This document shows, in pieces, positions 5,303 through 63,286 of a stretch of 64,000 nucleotides of DNA. Source of the stretch: an uncultured Methanosarcinales archaeon (GTDB taxonomy: Archaea > Nanobdellota > Nanobdellia > Woesearchaeales > JAGWAF01). Each line of letters starts with the position of its first letter. Position 1 is the first letter of the stretch. Made by a program: the position numbers and the translations under genes. The notes beneath the pieces were generated by a model. That model did not search any database. It was not told where the DNA came from and was given only the letters and a program-made list of their open reading frames with translations. Location of the stretch: the NCBI GenBank assembly GCA_964597775.1, contig CAZQZJ010000002.1, forward strand, positions 357 through 64,356, read 5' to 3'.

Positions 5303-5314
5303 GTTGTAATGCTC

Positions 5315-5680
5315 CTATATCATTCTTTCAATAAGGGCGTTAATTGCCTCTCCTCTGTAGCCAAGTGCCCCGCCTGCATCATACGATTTCTTAATGCCTT
5401 TTCTCTCGAATCCTTTTGTTGGAGGTGCAAGTCTAAAGTAGGGTTTTGATTTGCCGTCACCTCTTTTTTTAATGAGGTTATTATAGGTTGTATCATCTAT
5501 TTCTCCCCATGTGATGTAATCTTTTAGTTTGTGAATCATGCCAATCATGCTTGGTACTGCAGGTACAACAGTGCAGTAATGTTTGCGATAAAGATGGAGT
5601 CCTTGGAATGTTCTTTTGATGGGTTCAGAGAGGTTAACTTCTCCACGTATTCTAATAACTGCCAGTTGTTTTGTGGTCAT
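5315..5680 (-). CDS. rpl30: Ribosomal protein uL30
   Basis: LAVIRIRG... ferredoxin-like L30 fold signature, operon position. Confidence 0.85.
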   Translation of the reverse strand: MTTKQLAVIRIRGEVNLSEPIKRTFQGLHLYRKHYCTVVPAVPSMIGMIHKLKDYITWGEIDDTTYNNLIKKRGDGKSKPYFRLAPPTKGFERKGIKKSYDAGGALGYRGEAINALIERMI

Positions 5681-5682
5681 GA

Positions 5683-6573: not shown

Positions 6574-6574
6574 G

Positions 6575-7129
6575 TTATCGTGATTCCATAATTTTTTTCT
6601 TAACCATTTCTATTTCTGTAGAAAGATTTTTGCTTGGGTGTAAACTAAATTGGTTTTTGTTATGGCAGTCTGTTTGGGCATACTTGATTATATGGATTCC
6701 ACTAATACGTTCAGATGTTGGTAGGCTTGAGGGGTCATGAGGTATGCTAATTCCGCCATCAATTGTTCCTTTGAGTGCTGCATATATTTTTGAGCCTGAA
6801 ATTGAGGGGTATAACCCGCTGTCAAGGATTGCTTTGGTAATTTTAGCTTTCTTTGCTTTTTGTGCAAGAAGTAGTCCTGTAAGGTATGCTGCAGGTATAT
6901 TTTTTGGTGATCCAGTATATCCAAAAGTGGTGAGCTCTTTTGAGTGTGCGCTTGTTGATACGTGATCGCCTTGTTGGTTGTAAGTAATGAGTTGTGTACT
7001 AATGTATTTTAGTGTTTTTCGTACAACTAATCGTGGTGTTTTAGCTATTAGGAGTTTTAATCGTTTCTTGTAGTTTGTGATACGGTGCAGCTTGCGTCGC
7101 ATCAATATGGTTTGTTGTGTGGTTCTCAT
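6575..7129 (-). CDS. rpl18: Ribosomal protein uL18
   Basis: Operon position between uS5 and eL19; conserved L18 C-terminal block. Confidence 0.8.
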   Translation of the reverse strand: MRTTQQTILMRRKLHRITNYKKRLKLLIAKTPRLVVRKTLKYISTQLITYNQQGDHVSTSAHSKELTTFGYTGSPKNIPAAYLTGLLLAQKAKKAKITKAILDSGLYPSISGSKIYAALKGTIDGGISIPHDPSSLPTSERISGIHIIKYAQTDCHNKNQFSLHPSKNLSTEIEMVKKKIMESR

Positions 7130-7584
7130 GGTCTTAGAAATTTGTTTTCTTCAAGGTAAAGTTTGATATGGCGTTTACTTCGAAAAAATCCTCCTTTGGC
7201 TTTTTGGCAGATTGTGCGGAAATCTTTTGGAGAAAGTTTATTTTTATTTTTGAGATGTACAAGCAGTTTGCGTTGGAGTCTAATCCGTGCCATCCAGGCA
7301 TCCTTTGTATTTGTTCGCGCACTTGCAAGTCCTTTATGTGAGCCGTGTCCTCTTCTTCGTCCTTTTTGTTTTTGGAGATGTATGATGCGAGCATGACCTC
7401 GTGATGTGTTAACAAGTGGTGCACGGTGGATATATCCTTTTTTGATAAGTGTACGTAGGTCGAATTTTGTAATAGCTTCTTTGATATCTGTGAGGTGTTC
7501 AACATTAAATATTACGCGTGATTCTCCGCAATGGAGTAGTTGTGCACAGAGTCTTTTTTGGACTGATAGGTTCATGGTGTTCAA
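7126..7584 (-). CDS. rpl19e: Ribosomal protein eL19
   Basis: KRLCAQLLHCGESRV..., basic C-terminus; archaeal operon position. Confidence 0.85.
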   Translation of the reverse strand: MNTMNLSVQKRLCAQLLHCGESRVIFNVEHLTDIKEAITKFDLRTLIKKGYIHRAPLVNTSRGHARIIHLQKQKGRRRGHGSHKGLASARTNTKDAWMARIRLQRKLLVHLKNKNKLSPKDFRTICQKAKGGFFRSKRHIKLYLEENKFLRP

Positions 7585-17221: not shown

Positions 17222-18643
17222 TTAATTTGTTTCAACAAGACCAAGATTATTCTTGTTTTCCTTTTGATTCACTTCTCGCTTCATGCGAATCCGCAGATGT
17301 GCATAATTAGCAGGGTTCTTAATTCTCTTACAAAGAGAATCTGGCATGCAAATGCCTAGATCTTTGTAATATGGCTGGTTGTCACAATTTGGTGGAAGTA
17401 TAGTGCCTTGTGTTTTAAAATGGTGGTTCAGGTGTCCTTTGATAATAACTTCTCTAAGCGGATCTGGGTTTTTCTTATTCCAGTTTTCAATAAGTAGTTC
17501 TATCTGTGCCTGACTCCAACCTGTTGAGCTAAGGAAATTAGTAAGAATAAAGAGTGCTCTTTTTTTACCATCTTGCATGCCTCCTAAGATGTTCATGATG
17601 CATGGTGGAAAATGTTCAAGAGGGATTGCTTCTTGTGGTGTGTCAAAAGCTTTTTTGATTCCGTCAATTCTTTCTTTATCAGGTGGAAGTTTGTAATCAA
17701 ATGCATTGACAAGTAATCGTCTTGCTTCTCCTTGTGCTACTTTAGTACGATCAAGAAATTTTTCTTTTCCAAGATTAATTGATTCTGGTGTTGCCATTGT
17801 CTTATCAAAAGTGATGATTTGAGATGGGTTAATTGGAATTGAAACCAGTCCACTTTTTTCATTAAGCGAGTATGGCATGCGGTAGAGGTGTCTAGAGGAG
17901 ATAAGGACTGTGTCAATAATAAGGACTTTGAATGGATCAAATTCTTTATTTGTCATTAGATCTTCAGGTTTTTTGTTAAGGATTCCACAGATAGTTGATA
18001 GTTGTTGAAATTCAAGAAGTGCTTGTGCAAGTGGTTCACGAATCATTTCACTAAGATATGCAGCAATACGTCTAGGTCCTTGAGGAAACAGGTGTTGTGT
18101 TGGAATGCTATTAATTTCAGATGGAAATGCCTCAAATGGTACAGCAATGTGGAATCCGTGATTTCCTGAGAATTTGATTGTTGTAGAATTAATGCCGTGA
18201 TAAATAAGGACATTATAAAGGATTTGTGCTGCAATTTGTGAATAAGAAAGGATTGGGCAGTCAATGTCTAAGATAAGATCCCAGCCAATGCGAAGGGTGT
18301 CAAGTTCTTGGCGATGCATTTGTGTGGTGAGGTACATAGGGTTTGTCCATAGTTCTTCTGAGCAATGAAATGATGTGGCGCCTTGTTGAACAAGGGTGAT
18401 CACATCGTTTGCAAATTGTAGGGTGTCTGGTCTTTTTCCATAGTTTCCATCTTTGTATCGGATTGCGATTTCCTTTCCATAGGCAAAATCTACAATTATT
18501 TTTTGTATTTCTGGTCTTTTGTAATATTTGAGAATTGTAGAGGTGCTAAGATCCATAAGCCTAGTAGTGTAGATAATCTTCTTAATTCTTGTGATAAGCA
18601 AAGGCGAGCAGTCGGTTTCAAAAGTGGCGTTCTCCTTTGTCAT
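17222..18643 (-). CDS. Fused DNA primase: PriS catalytic domain + PriL C-terminal 4-Cys (Fe-S) domain
   Basis: PriS motifs LILDIDCPI and FSGNHGFHIAV; C-terminal region with 4 spaced Cys (PPCIMN, PNCDN, GICMP, SLCKR) resembling PriL-CTD. Confidence 0.7.
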   Translation of the reverse strand: MTKENATFETDCSPLLITRIKKIIYTTRLMDLSTSTILKYYKRPEIQKIIVDFAYGKEIAIRYKDGNYGKRPDTLQFANDVITLVQQGATSFHCSEELWTNPMYLTTQMHRQELDTLRIGWDLILDIDCPILSYSQIAAQILYNVLIYHGINSTTIKFSGNHGFHIAVPFEAFPSEINSIPTQHLFPQGPRRIAAYLSEMIREPLAQALLEFQQLSTICGILNKKPEDLMTNKEFDPFKVLIIDTVLISSRHLYRMPYSLNEKSGLVSIPINPSQIITFDKTMATPESINLGKEKFLDRTKVAQGEARRLLVNAFDYKLPPDKERIDGIKKAFDTPQEAIPLEHFPPCIMNILGGMQDGKKRALFILTNFLSSTGWSQAQIELLIENWNKKNPDPLREVIIKGHLNHHFKTQGTILPPNCDNQPYYKDLGICMPDSLCKRIKNPANYAHLRIRMKREVNQKENKNNLGLVETN

Positions 18644-33359: not shown

Positions 33360-34577
33360 CTAGGTATCATTCTCTTGTTTATCTTTAACCTTGTATATAG
33401 CAGTTGTGTCGTCATGATAAACTAGTTCAAATCCTTTAATAGTACGTAATGTGTTCATCTGATTAAGCAGTGGGTCTTCAGAGGTTTGGGCAAGTAGTTC
33501 ATAAAGAGGTATAGTGTGGATATCGCTTATTGTTACAAGTACGTATGATACATTTTTTTCTAGGAGAGTCTGTGCAGCAGTGTTTGGATCAGATGTAGTA
33601 AAAAAACTAGCAATAAGTGTTCCTGTGTGTTGAGATGATTGTGGTCCATATCTTTCTTCATCCCAGTATGGTTTATCTTGGATAGTATAGTCACCTAATG
33701 AAAACACTGTTTTATTATCTGCATCATCTGGTTGAATATTTATAGGGACTGTTGTTGCAACAACATTTCTTTTAGTTGTGGCGCGGATTATGTGTCCAAG
33801 TTCCCAATTGGTGATAAATACATCGTTTGGCAGTGTGTGTTTGGTAATCCAGGAAAATGCTTGATCAAGATCTGGTCTGCGTAGGATCCAAGAATATGTG
33901 TGTTCTTCTGTTGTATAGGATATTGTTGGAGCAAATATAAGGTCACAGGCACCAGGAAGATCGGTTTGGTAACAGCGTGTACTATCATTTGTTGTAATAC
34001 CTTGGCATATGCTTTGAAGAGAATAATTTGAAAATGCACAATCCTTAGTGTTCATCTTGTGTGTTGTTCTGCATGGATAATTTGTGGCAATACAGTCAAT
34101 GGTCCTATCAAGAAATCCATAAAGGCAAATGTCTTTGAGTTCAGGATTCTGTATAGAATTACATTGGGTAATATCATCATAAGTAAATGATAAATAAATC
34201 TTGCAATGATCACTAATACTGGTGTTGCTTATCAGGTTGCAGGTATGAGTGTCTGTCTGTTTTGATTCATGACATCCAAATCCTTGGTTGTCCTGAATGC
34301 ATGAGGCATAGTTTCTATTTCTTTGGCAAAGGTTGTTTTTTTCAATACAAGTATTGGTTTGAATTGTGTTATTGACAACCTGTTCAAACAAGCATAGCTG
34401 TTTTTGTGATTCTGTGAGATTATCACAAGAAGGTGTGGGAAATGTTAAAATAGTTTTAGAATCTTGTAGATTCCCTAATAGAATCGTTGGTTCTGATTTA
34501 GTTGCTGCTTGTTCAGATGTACATGCTGCTATAAATATGAGTAGTATACTTATTGTGATAGTAATATAATGTGGCAT
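33360..34577 (-). CDS. Secreted/lipoprotein-like Cys-rich protein, hypothetical
   Basis: Signal peptide with FIAACTS lipobox-like site; >20 Cys. Confidence 0.4.
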   Translation of the reverse strand: MPHYITITISILLIFIAACTSEQAATKSEPTILLGNLQDSKTILTFPTPSCDNLTESQKQLCLFEQVVNNTIQTNTCIEKNNLCQRNRNYASCIQDNQGFGCHESKQTDTHTCNLISNTSISDHCKIYLSFTYDDITQCNSIQNPELKDICLYGFLDRTIDCIATNYPCRTTHKMNTKDCAFSNYSLQSICQGITTNDSTRCYQTDLPGACDLIFAPTISYTTEEHTYSWILRRPDLDQAFSWITKHTLPNDVFITNWELGHIIRATTKRNVVATTVPINIQPDDADNKTVFSLGDYTIQDKPYWDEERYGPQSSQHTGTLIASFFTTSDPNTAAQTLLEKNVSYVLVTISDIHTIPLYELLAQTSEDPLLNQMNTLRTIKGFELVYHDDTTAIYKVKDKQENDT

Positions 34578-37079: not shown

Positions 37080-40067
37080 TTAAGCAATTTTAACATATTG
37101 TTTGTTTACAAAAGCTGTGTCACTTCCATATCGTATTTGATACCAATCTCCAGATTCACCTACAATAGAAACTTGTGTATCACGGTTCAATGCGCCAATT
37201 CTATTGTTCCCTATCTTAGCTGAACTTCTCACATTCAGTCTACCACCTTGTGTTGTAACTACACCTAAATAAGGTGTCAAAACTGGAAGATTAATATGCT
37301 CTGTTTGGGATTGTGATGCCAATTCTTCCTTTTCAGCTTGTTTTGTGTTTGGAAACCATCTTCGTATTTGATATTCACCATTCCTAATGCCTTGGTTTAG
37401 TTTTGCAGTGCTGATAAGGTTGGTATATCTTCTGGGTACAATGGCAGGATCTGAGCCTGCAAATCTATCAACAAATCTTTTTCCATTAATCTCAATGACT
37501 CCCAAAACACCTTCTGTATGGCCATATCCTTGTTTATTAGGCTTTTTTAGTATGACATCTCCAGATTGAATATCCTCTGCATTTTTGATAAGTGGAAGAT
37601 CTCGGGATGACATCTTCCACAGAGAGCCTGTTGCAAAAGACGCATAAGTTCCTCTTAAATATTCTGTGAAATCCTCTTCAGAGTTTGGTGTCCAGGTAGG
37701 TTTGTATCCTGGAAGTGCTATCTTATCTCTTCCTCCTTTTTTTATCTCTGATTTTTGGAACTCAGTATAACATCTTATCTGAACATCTGAACAGGTTTCA
37801 CTTCCTGAAATAATAGTATAGGCATTATTATCAAATCCTCCGATATTGTATTGTGTTCCCTCTCCAGGGTTGTAAAGTGGGATATCAAACCTTCTTCCGC
37901 TTACAGTGTTTGAGAGTTCAGATGAATGTATTTGTAATGCTGTTTCATATGGTTGCGTTTTGACTCCTGGAACCCTGTGAAGACCAAGGTTTTCTATATA
38001 ATTTGCAAAGGCATTTGTTCCCTGTGGTGTTGTTATTCTTTCTCCGAAATATCCTACTACGTTCTGGCCTGCATCTAACATAAGCAGCTCTCCAGCATTG
38101 TTTATTTCATTCTCAAGAATTTCTAATTCACTTCTCAATCGTACAGCTGGGTGTTGCTGTTTCAAATTCCCAATTTGATTTTCTGTTATTCTTATTTGTT
38201 GGTCTAAATCTTCAACTTTTTTTCGAAAAGTGGTTTCTCTTTGTTGAATTTGACGATTGTTTTCTGATGTTTGAGTCAAGACACTTCTTGCTCTCTCTAA
38301 TTCCTTTTCTGCTTTTTCTTTTGATTTTTTAAGATCCTTTAATATACTGAGTTGTTGTTCATAATTTGTTAGATAAGAGGATAATTGACGGTCAGTAGAA
38401 GTCATATGTGAAATCTGGGCTCTTTTTTGTTGTACAAGCTCTGTTTTCTGTGCTATTTGAGAACGTAGTTCTGAGATTTTCTCAGCAGGAATTCTAGAGT
38501 CATAGAATATATTTGTATTATATTCATATTTTCTGGTTTTTCCATCATCTGTTTTGTAGTCAAGCATCATGTCTGTGCCAGCGTATGTTGGAAGAGTTCC
38601 AAATATCTTAGAAAGCAAAGATGGGGTTTTGAAAGGAGTGAGCAGAATCTCTTTACCATTGGTCACAGTTTCCCAATTACCATTTTTTATCCTCAATCTA
38701 CCTTCTGCTGTAGCATGTATTGTTTGGGGTGTTCCTTCTTCTGACCCAGGTTCAAGTATGACTTTTCCTCCTTCAAGATTAATAGATAATCTTGTAGGAA
38801 TGTTTTCTTCAGGACGATCAGGTGATAATTGGTGCATATCTTTAAATCCAGAAAATACTAAATTTCTTTGTTTAAGTTCTGATGTAAAACCTGTTCCAGA
38901 GGCGATAACAATGTCAGAACCCTGCATGAAATAGTTTGCATGTACAGGTAGGTGTTGTTGTGAGATAAATGAGTGGTATATTTCATTCCTTTCTGATCTA
39001 TATCTTCTCTGAATTTCTGCAATCTTATCACGAAGGAAAAACTCATTATCCCTTAACCTTGAAGCTTTCTCCAACAAATCTCTCGCTTCTATTTTAAGAT
39101 CTGATTCCTTAGCTGGATTAAGCTCTCTTTCCATTTCCTGTTCTTTCTCTTTAGCTTGTGTTATCATTTGTGAAGCTTGTTCTCTATTTTTTTTTGCCTT
39201 TGTGTACTGGAGTAACAGCGGTTCTAATATTTCTTTTTCTCTTTGCACAGAAGCCATTATCTGATTATTAGAGATATATCTAATATAAAGTGGATTATCT
39301 GTTGTTGTGTGATGCCAATAACTTACCAATGCATCAGAGTATGGGTCAAGTAGTGTGGGAATTCCTTGTGTAAATCGAATTGATCCCTTGTTGAGGATAT
39401 CTCCTTTTGGAAGATTTATCCTCTCCCCTTTGATAGTGATATCTCTATCAATCTTTGAAATTGTTGTGTCGCTGACAAGTAAGACATTTTCTGTTCTATC
39501 ATAATGAGCTTCTGTTGGTTTATCAAAAGTCACTCCATTGATGGAAGTAAATATTCCATAGATTTTCCCATTCTCAAAAGATAATTCTGTTCCACGTATC
39601 AGAACTCCGTCAATTGATGTTTCTTTATTTTCATCTGCAAAAAGTTCAAATCCAGAACTAGTAGATATCAATTCTCCAGAAAACGAATGGGGATTGTTAT
39701 TATTATCTATAATGTGGAGGTGTCCTGATTCGTCTATTTTAAAAGAAAAGAGGTGTTTTGTATCATAGATGTTAATACGATATTTATCTGATGTGATCCA
39801 TCCCCGTGTATCGAATCTAAAGTCAAACTGTGCATTGCCTGATTGGGATATTTTGACACCTTCTTCGTTAAGCATCTTGATAAATATGTCATTATGTTCA
39901 TTCATATGTTGTGGGTCTTTTGCAAAGAATTTCTTTAAAGCTTCTCTATGATTTTCATTGGTATAATCAATTTCATTCAGATTAAGCTCGATAGATTCTT
40001 CTTGTGCCTGGACTATTCTAAGGAGGAGGATAATCACTAAAATTGTGACAAAGCTACCTTGTTTCAT
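37080..40067 (-). CDS. Large secreted protein: signal peptide, two coiled-coil regions, NlpC/P60-like papain-fold domain, C-terminal SH3b domain
   Basis: SH3b signature (RLNVRSSAKIGNNRIGALNRDTQVSIVGESGDWYQIRYGSDTAFV); Cys...GDVIL...GHTEGVLGV pattern. Confidence 0.6.
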   Translation of the reverse strand: MKQGSFVTILVIILLLRIVQAQEESIELNLNEIDYTNENHREALKKFFAKDPQHMNEHNDIFIKMLNEEGVKISQSGNAQFDFRFDTRGWITSDKYRINIYDTKHLFSFKIDESGHLHIIDNNNNPHSFSGELISTSSGFELFADENKETSIDGVLIRGTELSFENGKIYGIFTSINGVTFDKPTEAHYDRTENVLLVSDTTISKIDRDITIKGERINLPKGDILNKGSIRFTQGIPTLLDPYSDALVSYWHHTTTDNPLYIRYISNNQIMASVQREKEILEPLLLQYTKAKKNREQASQMITQAKEKEQEMERELNPAKESDLKIEARDLLEKASRLRDNEFFLRDKIAEIQRRYRSERNEIYHSFISQQHLPVHANYFMQGSDIVIASGTGFTSELKQRNLVFSGFKDMHQLSPDRPEENIPTRLSINLEGGKVILEPGSEEGTPQTIHATAEGRLRIKNGNWETVTNGKEILLTPFKTPSLLSKIFGTLPTYAGTDMMLDYKTDDGKTRKYEYNTNIFYDSRIPAEKISELRSQIAQKTELVQQKRAQISHMTSTDRQLSSYLTNYEQQLSILKDLKKSKEKAEKELERARSVLTQTSENNRQIQQRETTFRKKVEDLDQQIRITENQIGNLKQQHPAVRLRSELEILENEINNAGELLMLDAGQNVVGYFGERITTPQGTNAFANYIENLGLHRVPGVKTQPYETALQIHSSELSNTVSGRRFDIPLYNPGEGTQYNIGGFDNNAYTIISGSETCSDVQIRCYTEFQKSEIKKGGRDKIALPGYKPTWTPNSEEDFTEYLRGTYASFATGSLWKMSSRDLPLIKNAEDIQSGDVILKKPNKQGYGHTEGVLGVIEINGKRFVDRFAGSDPAIVPRRYTNLISTAKLNQGIRNGEYQIRRWFPNTKQAEKEELASQSQTEHINLPVLTPYLGVVTTQGGRLNVRSSAKIGNNRIGALNRDTQVSIVGESGDWYQIRYGSDTAFVNKQYVKIA

Positions 40068-50412: not shown

Positions 50413-50439
50413 TGATCTAACTCTTACTGTCTTATCCAG

Positions 50440-50800
50440 GGTGCAGACGAAGCCAACGGTAACATCATATTGTTTGGTGTCTCTGAGGAAAGTCTGCCCA
50501 CATCCAGGATCTTTAGTTCAAATCTAAAGATTCTGCAGACAAGCGGTACCTATCCAAACAATAGGATCCAGTAATGGATGGCAACATCACCGAAACGACA
50601 CGGCCATATGCAGATGAGAATGACGCAGTGAAGTCCTTGGTAACAGGGATGAGTTAACCTGTAGAATGATGCATAATGGATGCGATGAAACGGATAGCCC
50701 TATCGTGTGCAAGGCAAACAAGATGCAAGTAGTTCATAAAAACATGTCTGCGTGCTCTTCACATGCCGCTTAGTTGAATGCTTCGGCAGATCATCGGAAG
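50440..50800 (+). ncRNA. rnpB: Candidate RNase P RNA
   Basis: Non-coding 480-bp gap with TATA; CR-I-like GAGGAAAGUCUGCCC at 50485-50499; distal GGCAGAU (50785-50791) can pair with GUCUGCC to form a P4-like helix. Confidence 0.35.
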
Positions 50801-50877
50801 GATGTTATAATCTTTCTTTGGGTCTGACAAAAGGCAGCTTATATGCGCCCTGGATCTTTTTTAAGGTGAGGAAGAGT

Positions 50878-53193: not shown

Positions 53194-53265
53194 GGCGGCT
53201 GTAGTATAATGGTAGTATTCGGGACTGTGGATCCCGAGAACCGGGTTCGATCCCCGGCAGTCGCC
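53194..53265 (+). tRNA. tRNA-His (anticodon GUG) with genome-encoded G-1 pairing C73
   Basis: Hand-folded: G-1 + GCGGCUG/CAGUCGC acceptor, anticodon loop CUGUGGA, T-arm CCGGGUUCGAUCCCCGG, followed by T7. Confidence 0.85.
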
Positions 53266-53276
53266 TTTTTTTAGGG

Positions 53277-54596
53277 CTAAAGTTTTTGAAAATATGCTTG
53301 AAGTTCTTCTTGTTGTGGGGAATCGTACAAAAGTGCTTCTGCAATAATCTCTCGTGCACGATCATTCTTGCCTTGTTTTTCAAAAACAACTGCCAAATTT
53401 GAAAGCGCCCAAATATCATCTGATTTTTTGTAAATCATATCTTGGAGATATAGTTCTGCTGCTCCATATTTGTGGTCTGCAATAAGTTCTGCAAGATGTA
53501 TTTGTGCAGGGTATCTTTTGTGAAGTGAAGCAAGTACTGCCTTAAAATTAGCAAGTTCTGTGCTTCGGTATGCACGACGAGCAGCAAAGAAAAGTCTTTG
53601 GATGTTTTTGGTTCTAGTAAGGGATGCAACGATGTTGGTATGAGCTGCAGCATTATGTGGGTTGATGCGCAGTGCTGCTTCAAAACATTCAATTGCTGTT
53701 GCATAATCTTGACGTTTGATAAAGATAAGCCCTTTGTTAATAAATGCATTTTCATTGTATGGTTTGAGTTGTATTGCGCGGTCATATGCTTTTATTGCAT
53801 CAGCATCTTGTCCTAACTTTACTAAAACATCTCCAAGATTTGTATAAACAAGTTTATAAAAAGGGTCTAGGCTTGCTGCGTGCGTGAGCATCTGAAGTGC
53901 TTGAGGAAATCGTCCTAATGTTTTGTAAATTTTTCCAACTTCATAGTATCCTTTTGGATTATTAGGTCTTTCTTGCATATCCTTGATTCCAAGTTCAAGA
54001 TAAAGATCACGTTTTTTGCTAAGAATATCCTCTCCTTTAAGATAGCCATAGTGGTGAATAGGGATATGTCCTAATCCAATGCTTCCTCCAATAGATGTGA
54101 TTGCAGTATCAATCTCTTCATGAACTTTGTTAATAAATCTGATTCTTTTGTCATTGCGAAAAAGTCTGGTAATTGGAGAAATAAAGAACCCTTTTGCTCG
54201 GCATTCAGGATATGTATCGCATGGTTGCCAGCTGTAATAGGTTGTGTTATCAGTATAATTGCGTTGGTCAAGAATCCAGCCCATCATTGTTTGGTGGTTT
54301 GTGAGTTGTTTAATTTTCTCAAAATCTTGTGGTGAAATTACTTCATCTGCATCAATATAAAGAATCCAATCTCCTGTTGCATGTTTGATTGCTTCGTTCC
54401 TTGCTGATGAAAAGTCATTTGTCCAAGGAATCTGGAATATTTGTGCTCCTTTTTTTGCTGCAAGATTCATGGTGTTATCAGTACTTCCTGTATCAACAAG
54501 AATGATCTCAGAAACAAGGGATTTTACAGAGTCTATGGCAGTTTCAATTCTATCTGCCTCATTCTTTGCAATCATACATAATGAGATTGTTGTCAT
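53277..54596 (-). CDS. Family-2 glycosyltransferase with C-terminal TPR repeats
   Basis: N-terminal GT-A fold motifs (SLCMIAKNEADRI..., DAD), then multiple 34-aa TPR-like repeats. Confidence 0.7.
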   Translation of the reverse strand: MTTISLCMIAKNEADRIETAIDSVKSLVSEIILVDTGSTDNTMNLAAKKGAQIFQIPWTNDFSSARNEAIKHATGDWILYIDADEVISPQDFEKIKQLTNHQTMMGWILDQRNYTDNTTYYSWQPCDTYPECRAKGFFISPITRLFRNDKRIRFINKVHEEIDTAITSIGGSIGLGHIPIHHYGYLKGEDILSKKRDLYLELGIKDMQERPNNPKGYYEVGKIYKTLGRFPQALQMLTHAASLDPFYKLVYTNLGDVLVKLGQDADAIKAYDRAIQLKPYNENAFINKGLIFIKRQDYATAIECFEAALRINPHNAAAHTNIVASLTRTKNIQRLFFAARRAYRSTELANFKAVLASLHKRYPAQIHLAELIADHKYGAAELYLQDMIYKKSDDIWALSNLAVVFEKQGKNDRAREIIAEALLYDSPQQEELQAYFQKL

Positions 54597-54748
54597 ATCT
54601 AGGTAAAAAGAGCAAGCCTTTTTAAGTGTTACACCAGAAAAGGAGAATCACGTTAAAGCCAGTCATGTCACACCACAGGATTTTGAAAAAAAGAGGTCGC
54701 AACCGGCTTTTTCAAAATCCTTAATAGATAATCCTTAAAAAGCATCTG

Positions 54749-55471
54749 GTGTTATTCTCGCGAATGATAGGTATTTCCATTGTCATTCCTGCATATAATG
54801 AGGAAGCCCGTATCATATCTACATTGAATAGAATAGATTCATATTGTAAATCAAACCAATTTGATTATGAGATTATTGTTGTGGATGATGGCAGCACAGA
54901 CAAAACCAGAGAGGTGGTTATGAAATTACATAATCCTAAAGTTTCTATTATTTCCTATGGTGAAAATAAGGGTAAGGGTTTTGCTGTGCGCACAGGAGTG
55001 CTTACTGCAAAAAAATCGCATATACTATTCTCAGATGCTGATTTATCAACACCTATTGAAGAGTTAAGTAAGTTCTTATCTGAATCTGCTGATATTGTCA
55101 TTGGTTCACGAAATCTACAAGATTCAAAAATTACAGTAAAACAGCCATATATACGTCAATCCTTAGGTAAAGCGTTTCCGATTATTGTGGAGTGGATTCT
55201 GCTCTTGCACATTAAAGACACACAATGTGGGTTTAAGCTTTTTACAAAGAAGGCTGCTCATACCATTTTTAGAAGGCAATATACTAACGGTTTTGGTTTT
55301 GATGTAGAGGTGCTTTTCCTTGCGCGTAAAAAAGGTTATGTGGTTAAGGAGGTTCCTGTAGAATGGAGAAATGCTGTTGGTTCAAAGGTAAGGTTATTTC
55401 GAGATGTGCCTCGAATGCTTATGGACGTATTATGGATTCGTTGGAGGGATTTTTGTGGATGTTACAACTAA
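54749..55471 (+). CDS. Dolichol/polyprenol-phosphate mannosyl(glycosyl)transferase, Dpm1-like GT2
   Basis: ISIVIPAYNEE...VVDDGSTD...DADLS GT2 motifs, 240 aa. Confidence 0.75.
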   Translation: MLFSRMIGISIVIPAYNEEARIISTLNRIDSYCKSNQFDYEIIVVDDGSTDKTREVVMKLHNPKVSIISYGENKGKGFAVRTGVLTAKKSHILFSDADLSTPIEELSKFLSESADIVIGSRNLQDSKITVKQPYIRQSLGKAFPIIVEWILLLHIKDTQCGFKLFTKKAAHTIFRRQYTNGFGFDVEVLFLARKKGYVVKEVPVEWRNAVGSKVRLFRDVPRMLMDVLWIRWRDFCGCYN

Positions 55472-57128
55472 ATCAGTATATGCTGCCTTGTTATTATTTA
55501 GTATATTTTTTGTAGTCATATCACTCTCTGCAGTTTCGCAAAAAGGGCTAACCAATGATGAAATTGTGCATATTACTGCTGGATATTCTTATTGGAAAAC
55601 CTTTGATTTTAGGTTAAACACTGAACATCCTCCTCTTATCAAGTTGATAGCATCAGTTCCTTTATTAGTGTTAAGTCCTTTTTTTGATATGGCTAATAGT
55701 GCATGGAAGAATAATAAGGAATGGGAGTTAGCATCAAATTTTTTCTTTGTGCAGAATCAAAATGCTGATCAGATCCTTTGGTGGTCACGCATTCCAATGG
55801 TATTTGTTGCACTCCTTGGTTTATTGTATATTTTTTGGTGGTCGCAGGAATTATATGGAAATAAGGCAGCTGTGTTTGCAGCGTTTTTATTTGCTGTCTC
55901 TCCAAGTATGCTTGCACATGCTCCTTTGGTAACAACAGATATTGGTTTAATGGTTTTTGTTTTAATGACCTGTTATTATGTTAGGAGGTTTTGTGAGCAT
56001 AAGTATAAACAGTGGTTATATGCAGCAGGAATATCTGCAGGGCTTGCACTTGCATCTAAATTTTCTTCCCTTTATCTTATTCCTACTTTGATAGGATTAG
56101 CAGCAGCGTATGAGTATAGTGTACGGGAAAATAAAAAGTTTTGGACATTGGTAAGTTTTTGGAAGTTGTGCGTGTGGATTGGTGTTATTCTGGCTATTGG
56201 TCTTGTTGTTGTTGTTTTGGTTTATGGTGTAGGTGGTTCGCCGATGTTTATAACTGGTTTGTTTAGGGTATTGCTTCATGGAGAATTGGGTCATCGTGCA
56301 TTCTTATTAGGTGAGCATAGTGAAAATGGTTGGTGGTGGTATTTTATTATTGCATTTTTGGTTAAGGAACCAATTGCATTGCTTATCCTGCTCAGTATTG
56401 GGGTGTATTCTGTATACGTGCAGAGGAATAGATTGCAATTAGTTGATGAGCTCTTTTTGTTGATTCCTGCCATTATTTTTATTCTTGCTTTTTCTGTTGG
56501 TAAGATTGATATTGGTATTCGTCATATTTTCCCAGCATATCCTTTTCTTATGATCTGGGTATCTAAGGTAGTTAATCTTAATTGGAATACAATCCTTAAA
56601 AAAGGGTTCTTTAGTATATTGATTCTCTGGTATGTTTATGCAGCTTTTGCTTCGTATCCTAATTATCTTGCTTATTTTAATGAATTTGTCGGTCCAGAAA
56701 ATGGTTATAATGTGCTTATGGACTCAAATCTTGATTGGGGTCAAGATCTTAAGTCACTTAGTAAGTATCTTCATGAGCAAGGTAATCCTATAGTAAAACT
56801 TGCTTATTTTGGAACAGATAACAAGGATTATAGAAATATTACTCATGAAGAACTTAAGTGTGGTCCACAAACTGGGTTGCTTGCTATCTCAGTAAATATG
56901 TTGAATGGTTTTACTGATTTGGATGCAGGATGCAGTCGTTGGTTAAAAAGTCATGATCCAATTGCTAAAATTGGATATTCTATCTTTGTGTATAATATTA
57001 CAGATAGTGATATTGTAAATGATCGTGAGATCTATTGCAAAGATAAATGTAGGGACAATTGTAAGCAAAAGAATCTTATCTTTGCAAAGAGTTCTTTTAA
57101 TAAGACATGCAGATGCAGGTGTGCATAA
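55404..57128 (+). CDS. GT39/PMT- or ArnT-like lipid-carrier-dependent membrane glycosyltransferase (alternative GTG start at 55455)
   Basis: 12+ TM; N-terminal loop with DE motif (LTNDEIVHITAGY) and EHPPL block typical of PMT/ArnT family. Confidence 0.65.
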   Translation: MCLECLWTYYGFVGGIFVDVTTKSVYAALLLFSIFFVVISLSAVSQKGLTNDEIVHITAGYSYWKTFDFRLNTEHPPLIKLIASVPLLVLSPFFDMANSAWKNNKEWELASNFFFVQNQNADQILWWSRIPMVFVALLGLLYIFWWSQELYGNKAAVFAAFLFAVSPSMLAHAPLVTTDIGLMVFVLMTCYYVRRFCEHKYKQWLYAAGISAGLALASKFSSLYLIPTLIGLAAAYEYSVRENKKFWTLVSFWKLCVWIGVILAIGLVVVVLVYGVGGSPMFITGLFRVLLHGELGHRAFLLGEHSENGWWWYFIIAFLVKEPIALLILLSIGVYSVYVQRNRLQLVDELFLLIPAIIFILAFSVGKIDIGIRHIFPAYPFLMIWVSKVVNLNWNTILKKGFFSILILWYVYAAFASYPNYLAYFNEFVGPENGYNVLMDSNLDWGQDLKSLSKYLHEQGNPIVKLAYFGTDNKDYRNITHEELKCGPQTGLLAISVNMLNGFTDLDAGCSRWLKSHDPIAKIGYSIFVYNITDSDIVNDREIYCKDKCRDNCKQKNLIFAKSSFNKTCRCRCA

Positions 57129-57317
57129 TCTAGATGTTAAAATATCTTGCAGTATCTGTCAAAAGTTCGCACCAACCACAGGTGATAGTACTGCTGCCTC
57201 TCAACACCAATGGCATGCTTGTTCTGCTGGACTCGGGGTGCTCACAAGCGAACTTTTGACTCCCGAATAAAACAGGTGTCCGAACCACAGGTGAGGACAC
57301 CGGTGGAATAAGTGCAT

Positions 57318-57668
57318 TTAACGACCAAGATTTAATTCTATACATTTATATCTACAATATTTGCATTCTGGATCTGAATACCAAGAAGGACGATTTGGTT
57401 CATGAGCATTTATTTCTGTTACTTCACTGCACTGGTTATTACGGCATTTAAGTTTTTTAAATAAAATTTCAGATCCTCCATAAAGAGAATCAAATTCAGT
57501 AGCAATGCAACGATATTCTATTTGTGCTACATATCCTCTAGGTACTCTAGTCGATCTGGCAACCTCTGCTCCATTTAGACTAGGAGATAAGGCAAACATG
57601 CTTAAACCAAAAACTGCAACAATGCCTAGAACTGCCATAATAAGGATGTGATGTATGTCATTATCCAT
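57318..57668 (-). CDS. Small secreted Cys-containing protein, hypothetical
   Basis: N-terminal hydrophobic signal; 8 Cys. Confidence 0.3.
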   Translation of the reverse strand: MDNDIHHILIMAVLGIVAVFGLSMFALSPSLNGAEVARSTRVPRGYVAQIEYRCIATEFDSLYGGSEILFKKLKCRNNQCSEVTEINAHEPNRPSWYSDPECKYCRYKCIELNLGR

Positions 57669-57744
57669 GTGATCTAATCTTTATTTCATGTACATAAAAT
57701 TTTCTATCCAATAAGGATAATTTTCCATTTTTTTATAATTTTAA

Positions 57745-58776
57745 TTATATAAGTATGTCTAGAAGTGGGTTGTTTGGATGCATTTCCTGTGCAAGGCTAA
57801 GTAGTCTTTTTGCTTCATCTTTTTTCCCAAGTTTGATGTAGGTGTCTATTAGTGCTTTAAAGAGTCGTGGATCTTTTCTGTCGATACTTAGGGCTTGTTG
57901 ATAGATCTGTTCTGCTCGCTGATATTTGCCACTCATGAAGAAAACTGCAGCAAGGTTGTTGAGTGCCATAAGATCCTTAGGATTATCCTTTAATGCACTA
58001 AGAAATGTTTGTGCTGCTCCTTTTAGGTCTCCTATATTAAGTTTGCAAACACCCAAGTTTGTGAGTGTGTTGCGATATAGTGCATGATATTTGGAGAGGT
58101 GAGTAAGAATCTGATGCGCTTCCTGCCATTGTTTATGGTGGATAAGTGTTAGTGCATAGTTATATGATATTTTAATATCAGAGGGTTTTTGGATATAATG
58201 ATCTCGAAGAATTTCAATGTTAAGAGGTTCTATAGTATACTTGTAGATTTTGACATCATTGATATGTTTTATCTCTATTTTCCTGTTCTGATCTGTAATC
58301 TCTATTTTAGGGTATGGCGAATCTACAAATCTGTATAAGTTATTATGTTTCCAGATCCTAATTCCATCATAGCTTGTGTAACCAGTGTATCCTGCAACAG
58401 CATGTGATGGTTTCCATCCACTAAGGTTGTAAGTATTTGTAAATGTGTGAATAGAAATGCTAAATCCATGCGTTGTGGTAGTAGCAAGCAGTGTTTTGAG
58501 TTTGGTAAGTTTTGGTTGGTATATAACTTCATCGCTGTTAAGGAAAATAATCCATTCAGAACTTACACACTCAAGTGCGTTATTAAGGCTTGATAAAGGG
58601 TTTTTTAGGTCACCAGGTAATAGTAAACACTTTTCTTGATAAGCACTATTACCAACCTCTTGTTTATTTGTTAGATTAACACAAATAATCTGGTTAACCA
58701 TCAAGTGTAGTGGTGTAAGGCAGCGAATAAGATCATCTATGTTATGGACAAGAATTATTGCAGTAATACTGGTCAT
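57745..58776 (-). CDS. Degenerate GT2-like domain + C-terminal TPR repeats
   Basis: N-terminal ITAIILVHN..., NSDE in place of DxD; TPR repeats in C-terminal half. Confidence 0.5.
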   Translation of the reverse strand: MTSITAIILVHNIDDLIRCLTPLHLMVNQIICVNLTNKQEVGNSAYQEKCLLLPGDLKNPLSSLNNALECVSSEWIIFLNSDEVIYQPKLTKLKTLLATTTTHGFSISIHTFTNTYNLSGWKPSHAVAGYTGYTSYDGIRIWKHNNLYRFVDSPYPKIEITDQNRKIEIKHINDVKIYKYTIEPLNIEILRDHYIQKPSDIKISYNYALTLIHHKQWQEAHQILTHLSKYHALYRNTLTNLGVCKLNIGDLKGAAQTFLSALKDNPKDLMALNNLAAVFFMSGKYQRAEQIYQQALSIDRKDPRLFKALIDTYIKLGKKDEAKRLLSLAQEMHPNNPLLDILI

Positions 58777-58803: not shown

Positions 58804-59604
58804 TTAATTTGTAAGATTTGTTGGCTCGTTAAAGCTTACAACATCTCTTTTATTACAATCTCCTCCTGTTTCTTTAATAGGGCTTAAAATCATTCCTATT
58901 TCTTTATCAACTTCCTTTTTATTGCCAGGAGTGATGGAATAAATGTTATTTCCTACTGCTACTTGTGCATTTGTTGTGTAATTATATTTCATGACCAGAA
59001 CATCATAAATCTTGTTATCTGTCTCAACAGTTTTGCTTCGTCCTTCATCATAGTATTTACAAGATTTTTTGTTTGAACTAAAAAGACATATTTCTGATGA
59101 TGTTACAGTGGCGCTGCAGCGATTTTCAGAGCCCCTGCCGCAATCAAATGCTGTGCAACAGTGATCATTAGGGATACATTTATTTTGTAGATTGCAGAAT
59201 CGATACTTTGATGGGCATGTGCATCCTTTGAAATCTTCTTCACATACCTTATTTGATGGGCAAATAACACTTTTGCAGCTAAAGACACAAGTTCCGCTTA
59301 TACAATTTTCATTCTGGTTACAATCTAAGTTTGTGCAACAATCTTTTTTATTAATACATAAATTATTACAATTCTTTTTGTTAGGTTCACAACTACATAC
59401 TCCATTTACACAAATCTTATCTGATTCGCATACAACACCTGTACATGGATTAGAGAGGTTTTGGGAGTTAGATAGGTTTGATCTATTCTGGGTATGGTTT
59501 GGTAAAGGAGGTTCTTCAATTGGTTCAGAGAGACTGACTCGCTGTGTACAGGCAGTAAGAAGAATAGTAACAAAGAGTAGTATACTTAGGGTAATCTTGT
59601 TCAT
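58804..59604 (-). CDS. Cys-rich lipoprotein with tandem EGF-like/Cys-knot-like repeats
   Basis: LLTAC lipobox; repeated C..x..C.NG.C.C patterns. Confidence 0.4.
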   Translation of the reverse strand: MNKITLSILLFVTILLTACTQRVSLSEPIEEPPLPNHTQNRSNLSNSQNLSNPCTGVVCESDKICVNGVCSCEPNKKNCNNLCINKKDCCTNLDCNQNENCISGTCVFSCKSVICPSNKVCEEDFKGCTCPSKYRFCNLQNKCIPNDHCCTAFDCGRGSENRCSATVTSSEICLFSSNKKSCKYYDEGRSKTVETDNKIYDVLVMKYNYTTNAQVAVGNNIYSITPGNKKEVDKEIGMILSPIKETGGDCNKRDVVSFNEPTNLTN

Positions 59605-60246: not shown

Positions 60247-60855
60247 TCATCTTACTGATGTTACTGGCATTATATTGTACCATGCATATAAGAGTCGATC
60301 TACTGATTTGAGTAACTCCAGTCCTTCGCCAAGCAGGATAATACACGTTCCTCTTGCTGCAATGCCGCTTTCTCCTTGTCCTAGAAGATAGATAACTGAT
60401 TTGTTTGTATCTCCACATTTAATAATTGGTCGTTCTGTGCAGATATCTGTTATATTGGTTGCGCATGCAGCAATAGGTGTTATGCCAATAGCCTGAACCA
60501 TATTGATAGAGAGTTCAGCTGCAGCAAGGCTCATTGTTGTAAAATTACCAGCTTCTGGATCAAAGGTGATATAAATAGTTGGTTTGTTAAAACCTGGATC
60601 AAAGATACCACTTACACTTACATTTTTAACATCATATGGGTTAAAGCGAAGTCTAATATTAAAAATAGTATTGCCTTTTTGCCATTCTGTGTTCCACAAT
60701 CCTCCAGCTTTAATAAAATCAAAGTGGTTATAGCTTACTGTCTGATATCTATTTGGTTTGTAGGTTTGGAAAAGGGTGTAGAATCCAAGAATAATAAGGA
60801 TGATAAGAATTCCTGACCATATCAATGCATTGTGGTACCAGCATTTTTCATTCAT
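60247..60855 (-). CDS. Membrane-anchored extracytoplasmic protein, paralog A
   Basis: N-terminal TM; shares ITFDP / C.N.T...I.C / LxYAWYNI blocks with the next gene. Confidence 0.4.
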   Translation of the reverse strand: MNEKCWYHNALIWSGILIILIILGFYTLFQTYKPNRYQTVSYNHFDFIKAGGLWNTEWQKGNTIFNIRLRFNPYDVKNVSVSGIFDPGFNKPTIYITFDPEAGNFTTMSLAAAELSINMVQAIGITPIAACATNITDICTERPIIKCGDTNKSVIYLLGQGESGIAARGTCIILLGEGLELLKSVDRLLYAWYNIMPVTSVR

Positions 60856-61484
60856 TGCATAACTCCTAATATAGAGTACATGAGTCTTTCATTAAGCTTA
60901 AGAAAATCTTCATCATTAGCTGCGCTGATGATGATACAACTTTTATCAATATTTAAATTAGTTTCATTTGCTTGCATAAACATCAGTACAGGTTCTGTTA
61001 CTGTTGCATTTCCACAATTGATCTGTGGTAGATCAGGATACTCGCTATTATTAAGAAGTGCACGTTGCACATACATCTGTTTGCCAAGTTTTAAGAGGTC
61101 ATCATTGGTATATTGTATTCCTCCAAGAAGATCACTAAATTCTGAATAAGGGTCATAGGTAATCCAGAACACACGTGTACTTTGCAGGATTTGTATAGCA
61201 TCTAAGCTTATATTGGTATGTTCAAGCTGTTCTGGTAAGTATGTAAATGTAAGGTCATTTCCATTAATCTCTGTTTTCCACTTGTTCTGAGCTGGAGTAA
61301 ATGTATAATTTCCATAGGTTGATGTGGCAACATTTTGTGTTGATTTATAATCAAGAACAAAGGCAAAACTAGATAACAGCATAAGTCCAATCATGAATAA
61401 TCCAAACCAAACAGCAAGTTTAATTCTTGGTTTAGGGTGATTTCTTGGTAATATATGGCCTATACTGCTCATTGACAGGTTCAA
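60852..61484 (-). CDS. Membrane-anchored extracytoplasmic protein, paralog B
   Basis: ATGA overlap with paralog A; conserved blocks as above. Confidence 0.4.
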   Translation of the reverse strand: MNLSMSSIGHILPRNHPKPRIKLAVWFGLFMIGLMLLSSFAFVLDYKSTQNVATSTYGNYTFTPAQNKWKTEINGNDLTFTYLPEQLEHTNISLDAIQILQSTRVFWITYDPYSEFSDLLGGIQYTNDDLLKLGKQMYVQRALLNNSEYPDLPQINCGNATVTEPVLMFMQANETNLNIDKSCIIISAANDEDFLKLNERLMYSILGVMQ

Positions 61485-62128: not shown

Positions 62129-63286
62129 ATGGTGCAGGATATTCGATCATATATTAGAAGAAGTCTTAGGTCAGGATACACTCCACAATTAATTCGTGCA
62201 GTATTAGCTCAGAACTATCAATCAGAGGATATTGAACGAATCTTGCGTGAAGAAATAAATTTATTACAGGGAGAACAGCCACAGTTTCCTATTCAATGGA
62301 TAATTCTTATTAGTGCAATCTTTCTTGCAATATTATTAATTTCCTTAGCATTTCGAACATATAAACTTGAACAAGCACAGATTGTGCAATCCCAAAAATC
62401 TTCTCAGAAACCAGCACTTCAAACTATTCCTAATCAAACCCTGCAAAAGATTCCAGCATCAGTCTCCTCAGGTGCACTTAGTTGTGATGAATACTGTGGA
62501 AAAATTCAAGCTGCGTGTAAGAATAATATCCAATATGATTCTGAGTTGGAATGTATTAGATATTGTGAACAATCTGGTGTATTTCATTTAGGGAGTAGAG
62601 GAGAAACATCAGGAAACACTCTTGCTTGTCGAATCTATCATGCAGAGGTTGCTGCAGCAACAAATCCAGATCTTCACTGCATTCACGCAGGTACTTCTGG
62701 TGGAAATGTCTGTGGAACCTACTGTGATAATTACTGTGCATTGGCACTTAATAATTGTAAAGACAAGCTTTTTTCTTCATTTCAGGAGTGTGAAACTGCA
62801 TGCAAACAGCTTTCAACACAAGGTATTCCTGGTGATACATTAGGAGACAGCGTGCAATGTCGTTTGTATCATCTTGGAGTTGCTGGTTCACAGCCTCCGC
62901 TTTCTCAAAATATACATTGTCCGCATGGATCTATACACAATAGTAAGGTTTGTGTAAGCAATACTCTAGCAACAACGCAACAGTCTCCATCACTCCAAGT
63001 ACAGGTTATACCTTCTAAATTAAATATATTAAATATATCTATCAGTTCATTTGCATTTGTTCCTAATACAATCAACCTTTCTGTTGGAAGCACTCTTGTC
63101 TGGACAAATGAAGATACAGTACCACATACTGTAGTAAGTACTGATGGCGAACTAAACTCTTCAGTGTTATCATTAGGACAAAGCTTTGAACACACATTTA
63201 CCAAACCAGGAACATATACCTATGCATGTGGTATTCATCCAGAAATGATAGGAACTATTGTTGTGACTCAAGTTGTGACTCAATAA
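62129..63286 (+). CDS. Membrane-anchored protein with three Cys-rich repeats and C-terminal type-1 copper (cupredoxin) domain
   Basis: Cupredoxin ligands PHT(V)...YACGIHPEM; three repeats of C..YC...C...C..CR(I/L)YH..VA. Confidence 0.65.
   Translation: MVQDIRSYIRRSLRSGYTPQLIRAVLAQNYQSEDIERILREEINLLQGEQPQFPIQWIILISAIFLAILLISLAFRTYKLEQAQIVQSQKSSQKPALQTIPNQTLQKIPASVSSGALSCDEYCGKIQAACKNNIQYDSELECIRYCEQSGVFHLGSRGETSGNTLACRIYHAEVAAATNPDLHCIHAGTSGGNVCGTYCDNYCALALNNCKDKLFSSFQECETACKQLSTQGIPGDTLGDSVQCRLYHLGVAGSQPPLSQNIHCPHGSIHNSKVCVSNTLATTQQSPSLQVQVIPSKLNILNISISSFAFVPNTINLSVGSTLVWTNEDTVPHTVVSTDGELNSSVLSLGQSFEHTFTKPGTYTYACGIHPEMIGTIVVTQVVTQ

Follow-up and report, generated by a model that had tools for sequence, protein, structure and literature searches.

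What do the glycosyltransferase genes at positions 53,277 to 58,776 of this stretch of DNA do, and onto what are their sugars placed? The whole stretch, called the window below, is 64,000 nucleotides of contig CAZQZJ010000002.1 from an uncultured archaeon of the Woesearchaeales. A sequence-only reading had described the genes as a glycosylation island in which a Dpm1-like synthase and a GT39/PMT-like membrane transferase mannosylate proteins by a lipid-linked route, with a glycosyltransferase family 2 (GT2) protein carrying tetratricopeptide repeats (TPR) on either side. We call the two flanking proteins GT2-TPR A and GT2-TPR B. We hold with moderate confidence that the locus is a conserved two-module cluster of DPANN archaea (Nanoarchaeota/Woesearchaeota type), most likely decorating surface proteins. 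One module pairs an Alg5-like GT2 with a membrane glycosyltransferase of the GT-C fold; the other is made up of the GT2-TPR proteins. Related loci and homologous proteins carry L and P numbers, and the closest relative, L004, is labelled Candidatus Woesearchaeota.

Conservation of the gene arrangement

The order of the four genes, with GT2-TPR on the minus strand, Alg5-like GT2 and GT-C on the plus strand and the second GT2-TPR on the minus strand, recurs in L004 at 61% GT-C identity. It is found again in L085 and L086 (44% GT-C identity), where the left flank is Nop/fibrillarin/NFACT and not NAC/MinD. Because the four-gene order recurs in relatives with different flanks, the arrangement is beyond chance. 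GT-C identity across the DPANN relatives that have it is 41-61%. In L087, the Alg5-like and GT-C genes are preceded by a gene (4659-7193, minus strand) for an 844-aa protein made of two motif-intact GT2-TPR modules head to tail, and this fusion suggests that the two GT2-TPR modules work together. A GT2-TPR gene directly abuts the GT-C gene in L089 and lies 1.4-6.2 kb from it in L005, L006 and L091.

Among GT-C relatives scoring at least ~390 bits with usable flanks, eight of nine have a GT2-TPR gene within 6.2 kb. None of the ~155 more distant, mostly bacterial GT-C loci has one nearby; association with GT2-TPR genes is confined to a DPANN clade. An Alg5-like GT2 lies within 8 kb of the GT-C gene in 16 of these ~155 loci and is adjacent in 10, often overlapping it, so the pairing of Alg5-like GT2 and GT-C is old and widespread.

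Alternatively, two or three independent glycosyltransferase genes may stay together in a small clade simply because gene order is inherited, with B a decaying duplicate. Several of the loci do share wider synteny, and the glycosyltransferase half of B evolves fast. B-type orthologues are also rare: a further search of 5.8 billion proteins returned four besides the window's own fragment, the L004 copy having come from its locus, so statistics on B are thin. However, the four-gene order outlives a change of both flanks between the window and L085 and L086, and in L087 the two GT2-TPR modules are fused beside the Alg5/GT-C pair. B is an intact open reading frame (ORF) in six genomes of two sub-lineages, and its TPR half is as well conserved (58.5%) as the TPR of A, which argues for selection and not decay. 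We consider a meaningless adjacency very unlikely.

Some ORFs beside these genes deserve mention in their own right. Homologous LAGLIDADG-like ORFs with the motif IIGDG adjoin GT2-TPR genes in L005 (10231-10911) and L006 (4549-5252, split in two), and an unrelated ORF beside the GT2-TPR gene of L089 (11297-12451) has a similar IIGDG string. An apparent TPR-only ORF upstream of the Alg5-like gene in L005 was rejected as an artefact, a masked run of N fused to a ribosomal-protein-like (zinc-ribbon) tail.

The lipid-linked pair

The first gene of the pair encodes a GT2 enzyme (86 bits to the Pfam GT2 profile) that is 37% identical to yeast Alg5 over its full length of 235 aa (E 7e-46) and 27% identical to yeast Dpm1 (E 2e-11); the yeast queries were the exact database entries NP_015097.1 for Alg5 and DPM1_YEAST. 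It carries the motifs DAD, GSR, DTQCGFK and FDVE, and yeast Alg5 has DTQCGFK, FDVE and W..GSK in common with it. The full-length similarity and these three shared motifs place the enzyme in the Alg5 type. Dolichyl-phosphate mannose (Dol-P-Man) synthases have DADxQHPP as donor and metal motif (PMC12992685), where the window's enzyme reads DADLSTPIEE. Identity, E-values and motif thus rule out the original Dpm1 assignment in favour of an Alg5-like enzyme, and the mannosylation that was built on it loses its foundation.

The nearest solved relatives of the enzyme are PfDPMS, the Pyrococcus Dol-P-Man synthase (5mlz, 1.4e-16), GtrB (5ekp, 1.7e-12) and ArnC (1.3e-11), so it belongs to the polyprenol-phosphate monosaccharide synthases. 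It has no hydrophobic segment, and the N-terminal transmembrane anchor of Alg5 is absent. A published phylogeny puts the glucose-transferring WsfH inside the Alg5 clade and the mannose-transferring AglD close to it (PMC4973528). This part of the family holds enzymes for both sugars, so the sugar cannot be called from the sequence.

The second gene of the pair encodes a member of the PMT_2/GT-C superfamily, with a PF13231 score of 57.9 bits against a cut-off of 26.1, a multi-spanning fold of ~11 transmembrane helices (12 had been counted before) and an acidic motif in the first outer loop. This loop opens with an invariant T-x-D35-E36-x-x-H39. A C-terminal extracytoplasmic alpha/beta domain (~400-557) carries the motif DSN[IL]DWGQD and a Cys-rich tail.

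The earlier label of GT39/PMT-like does not fit this enzyme. The PF02366 PMT profile scores 22.4 bits, marginally below its cut-off of 22.7. Eukaryotic PMTs have a luminal MIR domain between TM7 and TM8; the GT-C has no Pfam match to MIR, and its model has a short loop at that place and the alpha/beta domain at the C-terminus instead. Nor is it a GT83 enzyme, as no ArnT model of NCBIfam matches; TIGR03663 (Agl23) alone gives a score, 25 bits against 126. A sequence search of the PDB returned nothing meaningful. In the AlphaFold model (pLDDT 93, pTM 0.92, 32 homologues) the best Foldseek matches are ArnT (5e-8) and Chaetomium Pmt4 (1.4e-7), both with a TM-score of 0.50, and identity is 13-17% to Pmt4 and 12-14% to ArnT. 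The predicted fold is equidistant from ArnT, PMT (Pmt4), ALG12 and AglB, so we reject membership of both GT39 and GT83.

In the window, L004, L085 and L086 the GT-C gene begins 14-23 nt before the GT2 gene ends, and the stop-to-stop ORFs of GT2 and GT-C also overlap in loci from Elusimicrobia, Syntrophobacteraceae and Omnitrophota. The synthase and GT-C are therefore a translationally coupled pair whose coupling is kept from archaea to bacteria. This part of the first proposal holds: the pair is a classic module for lipid-linked extracytoplasmic glycosylation.

Several known systems resemble this module. In streptococci, the synthase/transferase pairs GtrB with PgtC2 and PgfS with PgfM1, each a GT2 and a GT-C, attach O-linked sugars to membrane proteins and lipoproteins within Ser/Thr-rich regions (PMC12041528). 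They resemble the window's pair in having a GT2 that makes a polyprenol-phosphate monosaccharide and a GT-C with an acidic outer-loop motif, which in streptococci transfers the sugar outside the cell, but they are bacterial, use undecaprenol and have neither GT2-TPR partners nor a pseudoenzyme. PgfS is also the best NCBIfam match of the window's synthase, at 66 bits against a cut-off of 500; all NCBIfam scores are far below their cut-offs, so the synthase is not a PgfS orthologue. The eukaryotic and actinobacterial PMT/Dpm1 systems have in common with the window the GT-C fold, a D-E motif right after the first transmembrane helix, a lipid-phosphate-hexose donor and possibly a Ser/Thr acceptor on proteins. 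They differ in that the window's GT-C has its own C-terminal domain with DSN[IL]DWGQD in place of MIR, and that its partner is Alg5-like. AglD and AglS of Haloferax are likewise an archaeal GT2 synthase and GT-C pair, finishing a surface-protein glycan outside the cell, with AglD near the Alg5 clade; their acceptor is an N-glycan and they lack GT2-TPR partners. Finally, ArnC and ArnT combine a GT2 synthase with a GT-C that has a C-terminal periplasmic domain.

The resemblance to ArnT raises the question of a non-protein acceptor. The GT-C might modify a glycolipid, lipoglycan or exopolysaccharide in the manner of ArnT, Rgt or Emb, with the GT2-TPR proteins engaged in an unrelated process. Lipids or polysaccharides are the acceptors of many characterised PMT_2 relatives, ArnT shares first place among the structural matches of the GT-C, and the GT-C family is mostly bacterial and without GT2-TPR neighbours. 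However, archaea have no lipid A, the ArnT family models do not match, the DPANN GT-C repeatedly adjoins GT2-TPR and S-layer genes, and many GT-C homologues have C-terminal TPR fusions like those of TMTC proteins. This explanation seems to us very unlikely.

The GT-C family itself is large, with 2,560 matches scored among 8,000 candidates examined. The family occurs in at least 590 species-level genomes of DPANN, CPR/Patescibacteria, Omnitrophota, Elusimicrobia, Acidobacteriota, Deltaproteobacteria and others. A C-terminal TPR extension, presumably extracytoplasmic, is seen in many bacterial members (for example P0035, P0045 and P0053). The eukaryotic TMTC protein O-mannosyltransferases have a similar architecture.

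The GT2-TPR proteins

Protein A has a SunS/GmaR-like GT-A domain (~1-205) followed by ~230 aa of TPR repeats. Its PF00535 Glycos_transf_2 match covers residues 5-119 (81 bits), and strong TPR matches lie at ~210-430. When the N-terminal 200 aa were searched against the PDB, the best matches were GmaR of Listeria (22ao, 6e-28), SunS (7msn, 8e-19) and ThuS (7msk, 1e-13), with the next solved GT2 at only ~1e-4. The motifs KNE, DTGSTD, NDFSxARN, DADE, VHE and HHYGY are intact, giving protein A the complete SunS/GmaR-like set of KNE, DxGSxD, NDFSxARN, DxDE and HE with C-terminal TPR. It has no transmembrane segment or signal peptide (maximum KD19 hydrophobicity 1.04), so it is cytoplasmic. The best NCBIfam match is the SunS family TIGR04195, at 90.4 bits against an equivalog cut-off of 350, and no glycocin precursor peptide, C39/ABC exporter or thiol-disulfide enzyme is encoded beside A. 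By its sequence, A is of SunS lineage and architecture and is not an orthologue.

GmaR adds GlcNAc to flagellin (O-GlcNAc), and its TPR has been proposed as the substrate recogniser (PMC9638930). The characterised members of this lineage that we cite work in the cytoplasm and transfer sugars straight from nucleotide donors to peptides or proteins; SunS and ThuS act on peptides. By homology, A is predicted to be a cytoplasmic, nucleotide-sugar-dependent and protein-directed glycosyltransferase. Both A and B find their best matches, by sequence and/or structure, in SunS, ThuS and GmaR, with which they share TPR or TPR-like helices behind a GT-A domain; the shared motif set is found in A. The window differs from these systems in lacking a glycocin precursor, a C39 peptidase/ABC exporter, a flagellin context and the antirepressor domain of GmaR. 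To our knowledge, neither a conserved dead paralogue nor linkage to a GT-C is known for the SunS, ThuS and GmaR families. The GT2-TPR proteins had first been seen as accessories of the lipid-linked route. Their SunS/GmaR type, whose characterised members act directly on peptides or proteins, speaks against that view and means that the locus holds two mechanistically different modules.

The main rival is that the GT2-TPR proteins build a dolichol-linked oligosaccharide, as AglJ, AglG, AglI and AglE do, and that the Alg5-like/GT-C pair adds a final hexose after flipping or after transfer to Asn. The models are AglD/AglS in Haloferax and WsfH in Paenibacillus alvei, where WsfH works with a PMT-like enzyme. 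In Haloferax, Dol-P-Man gives mannose to an N-glycan intermediate at the external cell surface. L171 and L172 have three to four different GT2-TPR paralogues in tandem, similar to the multi-enzyme arrays of glycan assembly, and NxS/T sequons occur in the lipoprotein linkers of the window and L004. AglD and WsfH also fall in or near the Alg5 clade (PMC4973528). However, the glycosyltransferase domain of A is far nearer to GmaR and SunS (6e-28 and 8e-19) than to AglJ (5e-8) or other lipid-acting GT2s, and the fusion of TPR to a glycosyltransferase is a hallmark of protein-directed enzymes (OGT, SPINDLY, GmaR, SunS). The window contains no AglB/STT3, initiating phosphosugar transferase or flippase. 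We regard glycan assembly as a serious possibility, if a doubtful one.

Protein B is a full-length paralogue of A (22% identity, E 3e-16), with a GT2 match below threshold (19.1 bits against 23.3) and TPR. FLNSDEVI in B aligns with YIDADEVI in A, which bears out the original observation of NSDE in place of DxD. The loss is not limited to this motif: KNE becomes HNI, DTGSTD becomes NLTNKQ, NDFSSARN becomes NPLSSLNN, and VHE becomes PYP. Six B orthologues were compared (the window, L004, L085/P0242, L086/P0241, L170/P0243 and P0244). All six have [N/S]xD for DxD, have lost the metal-binding His and have kept the TPR. In the L004 copy the whole nucleotide-binding segment is deleted. Every other GT2-TPR examined in the relatives keeps DxDE.

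An AF2 model of B (pLDDT 89) shows a GT-A sheet and TPR, and its best whole-chain matches are SunS and ThuS (TM-score 0.58-0.63). Between the window and L004, identity is 38% for the glycosyltransferase-like half of B and 58.5% for its TPR half, compared with 64.7% for the glycosyltransferase half of A. This pattern points to relaxed constraint on the catalytic half of B and maintenance of its TPR. Since fold and TPR are kept while every catalytic motif is lost, B can be described as a pseudoenzyme member of the SunS/GmaR-like lineage. It is very probably non-catalytic, and the scaffold role first suggested for it is well supported at the level of sequence.

Surface proteins and the rest of the locus

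Genes for homologous S-layer proteins (PF05124, ~820-970 aa) lie within 8 kb of the cluster in L005, L006, L087, L089 and L091. A separate test seeded with GT2-TPR homologues added L171 and L172, for a total of seven loci in at least four arrangements. In L171 (8001-16056) a tandem of GT2-TPR genes is followed by the S-layer gene, and in L172 (3216-10195) three GT2-TPR genes surround it; neither has a GT-C. The S-layer protein that adjoins the fusion gene and the Alg5-like/GT-C pair of L087 has 846 aa and a C-terminal region ending in ...EEEEEEEETTTTTTVPEDEE.

The window offers candidates of its own. Next to B is a lipoprotein with 10% Cys, in which an Asn/Ser/Thr-rich linker follows the lipid-anchor Cys; no Pfam or NCBIfam family matches it. 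The linker has four NxS/T sequons and that of the L004 orthologue, otherwise divergent, has three, which hints at N-glycosylation of this segment. Homologues of the lipoprotein occur near the cluster in L004, L085, L086 and L170, and in the last three of these the conserved neighbours stand in a different order. Beyond it are two paralogous anchored proteins of 202 and 210 aa, for which phmmer found homologues in L004, L085 and L086 with order and strand rearranged; they match no Pfam or NCBIfam family. Both sub-lineages with a B gene have them close to the cluster, and they may be accessory parts or substrates. The S-layer genes beside the clusters of relatives and the conserved Cys-rich lipoprotein make a surface-protein target plausible, as had been proposed at the outset.

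How might the two modules work? In the first, the soluble Alg5-like GT2, working on the cytoplasmic side of the membrane, would transfer a hexose from its nucleotide sugar to dolichyl phosphate. Glucose would be the simplest choice, and mannose or another hexose is also possible. A putative flippase would move the lipid-linked sugar across the membrane, where the coupled GT-C would use the D-E motif of its first outer loop to transfer the hexose to Ser/Thr of a surface protein or to a sugar already present on one. In the second module, A would capture a protein substrate by its TPR and glycosylate it before export, perhaps the same or related surface proteins. The dead paralogue B would serve as adaptor or partner, perhaps forming an A:B heterodimer. 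Substrates of Sec are glycosylated in the cytoplasm in several known systems: HMW1 by HMW1C, autotransporters by heptosyltransferases, and the serine-rich repeat adhesins.

Another possibility is that the cluster is all or part of an archaeal protein O-glycosylation machinery that spans two compartments. Here A, with B as its dedicated pseudoenzyme, would prime S-layer proteins or Cys-rich lipoproteins in the cytoplasm before Sec export, and the PMT-like GT-C would add or extend with hexose from Dol-P-hexose outside. Given the SunS ancestry and the neighbour with 10% Cys, Cys as well as Ser/Thr could be the target. We think a joint pathway of this kind unlikely, though less so than a non-protein acceptor.

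A number of observations weigh against a two-module cluster for surface proteins. Neither a flippase gene in the cluster nor an S-layer homologue in the 64-kb window (E <= 1e-3) was found. The Alg5 clade contains glucose- and mannose-transferring enzymes alike (PMC4973528). For most members of the GT-C family, among them those of hundreds of bacterial species, both partners are missing from the neighbourhood, and the GT2-TPR relatives in L173 and L174 stand alone with no GT-C or S-layer gene in the vicinity. Radical-SAM and/or GINS markers are common to L005, L089, L091 and L171, while L085, L086 and L170 are closely related to one another; this residual synteny and kinship leave few independent observations, about four to five. 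Finally, we know of no characterised system that joins a cytoplasmic protein glycosyltransferase to an extracytoplasmic GT-C, and their co-inheritance is mechanistically puzzling.

Each component is of a known kind: a polyprenol-phosphate-sugar synthase, a GT-C transferase and a TPR-guided GT-A protein glycosyltransferase. As a whole, the locus falls outside GT39, GT83, Dpm1 and the SunS equivalog family. In the literature searched we found no report of a SunS/GmaR-like GT2-TPR coupled to an Alg5-like/GT-C pair, of a dedicated pseudo-glycosyltransferase paralogue, or of GT2-TPR arrays recurring beside DPANN S-layer genes. O-glycosylation of archaeal S-layer glycoproteins has been known for decades, and its pathway is still described as elusive (PMC8241124). 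The locus provides a conserved candidate gene set for this modification that is open to heterologous expression. There are three further points of interest. First, TPR-guided glycosyltransferases of SunS/GmaR type occur widely among DPANN archaea, frequently as multiple copies next to an S-layer gene. Second, a long-lived pseudo-glycosyltransferase partner has been kept in one lineage. Third, DPANN, CPR and many bacterial phyla share a very large uncharacterised GT-C family that has its own C-terminal domain and DSN[IL]DWGQD motif. As DPANN archaea are thought to depend largely on hosts, the glycans on their surface are likely to be important for attaching to them.

The features of the locus are collected in Table 1. 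The five ORFs first listed there were correctly placed by position and strand from the start, and the same genes were predicted independently on the source contig, which comes from Hainich groundwater metagenomes (ENA ERZ1292634).

Table 1. Genes and intergenic features of the cluster and its right flank, in window positions
Feature	Positions	Strand	Description
GT2-TPR A	53277-54596	-	439 aa; PF00535 Glycos_transf_2 and TPR
Divergent intergenic region between GT2-TPR A and Alg5-like gene	54597-54763		167 bp, from sequence
Alg5-like GT2	54764-55471	+	235 aa; predicted dolichyl-phosphate hexose synthase; ORF as listed 54749-55471
GT-C membrane glycosyltransferase, PMT_2 superfamily	55455-57128	+	557 aa; ORF as listed 55404-57128
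Orphan Cys protein	57318-57668	-	116 aa; N-terminal anchor, 6 Cys
GT2-TPR B	57745-58776	-	343 aa; very probably non-catalytic, degenerate paralogue of A
Cys-rich lipoprotein	58804-59604	-	266 aa, 27 Cys, lipobox LTAC; candidate substrate
Two paralogous N-terminally anchored proteins	60247-60855, 60852-61484	-	202 and 210 aa; no family match

The likely start of the Alg5-like gene is an ATG at 54764. The called start of the GT-C gene is a GTG at 55455, which gives an overlap of 17 nt with the gene upstream. For A the longer ORF start is correct, because the shorter database call (MEK6874983.1) begins downstream of the conserved first strand ISLCMI. The divergent region between A and the Alg5-like gene is presumed to be a shared promoter region; the same divergent layout is seen in L004, L085, L086 and L087.

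The 116-aa Cys protein had been listed as part of the system. The ORF, its N-terminal hydrophobic segment and its six Cys are indeed present; its standing as a conserved component does not hold. L004, whose GT-C and B genes lie directly side by side, does not have it, no related locus gives a tblastn match, and a search of 1.84 billion representatives returned only itself and one marginal match (E 8e-4). It is an orphan, a lineage-specific insertion that is probably outside the system. Proteins of 116/117 aa near the cluster in L085, L086 and L170 were considered as homologues and turned out to be unrelated and cytoplasmic. A glycocin cluster with this protein as precursor was rejected as well, as it is an orphan absent from L004, its N-terminus is an anchor and not a leader, and a C39/ABC exporter is lacking.

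Between the GT-C gene and the 116-aa gene, which converge, lies a GC-rich spacer of ~190 nt (57129-57317) in which the direct repeat AACCACAGGTGA occurs twice. Against shuffled sequences the plus strand gives the better fold (z -3.1), unlike the minus strand (z -0.9). As a sign of a structured RNA this is modest, and no Rfam family matches. L004 has neither the spacer nor the orphan gene; the two seem to be an insertion specific to the window's lineage.

The host is archaeal, as an archaeal RNase P RNA (50439-50850, plus strand, 96.7 bits), archaeal NAC and other archaeal housekeeping genes are present in the window. The term island suggests foreign DNA, for which we see no sign: GC content is 0.36-0.38 throughout, with the cluster matching its surroundings. 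Horizontal acquisition was rejected on this uniformity, on the vertical conservation of the cluster, and because no integrase or repeats accompany the abutting tRNA-His. This tRNA gene (53194-53266, plus strand) ends 10 nt from the 3′ end of the A gene.

Secreted Cys-rich proteins and lipoproteins are abundant in the window, as had been noted. Besides the neighbour of B, a 405-aa Cys-rich lipoprotein (33360-34577, minus strand) has 17 Cys and eight sequons and is a candidate surface (glyco)protein, as is a 995-aa secreted protein with a C-terminal bacterial SH3 domain (37080-40067, minus strand). Lipobox proteins are found at 40964 and 41808. A 385-aa Cys-rich protein (62129-63286, plus strand) has a C-terminal cupredoxin/plastocyanin-like domain, to which a precomputed annotation adds BfoA_C. 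Far from the cluster, a single 473-aa ORF (17222-18643, minus strand) matches both subunits of DNA primase, as a fusion of PriS and PriL.

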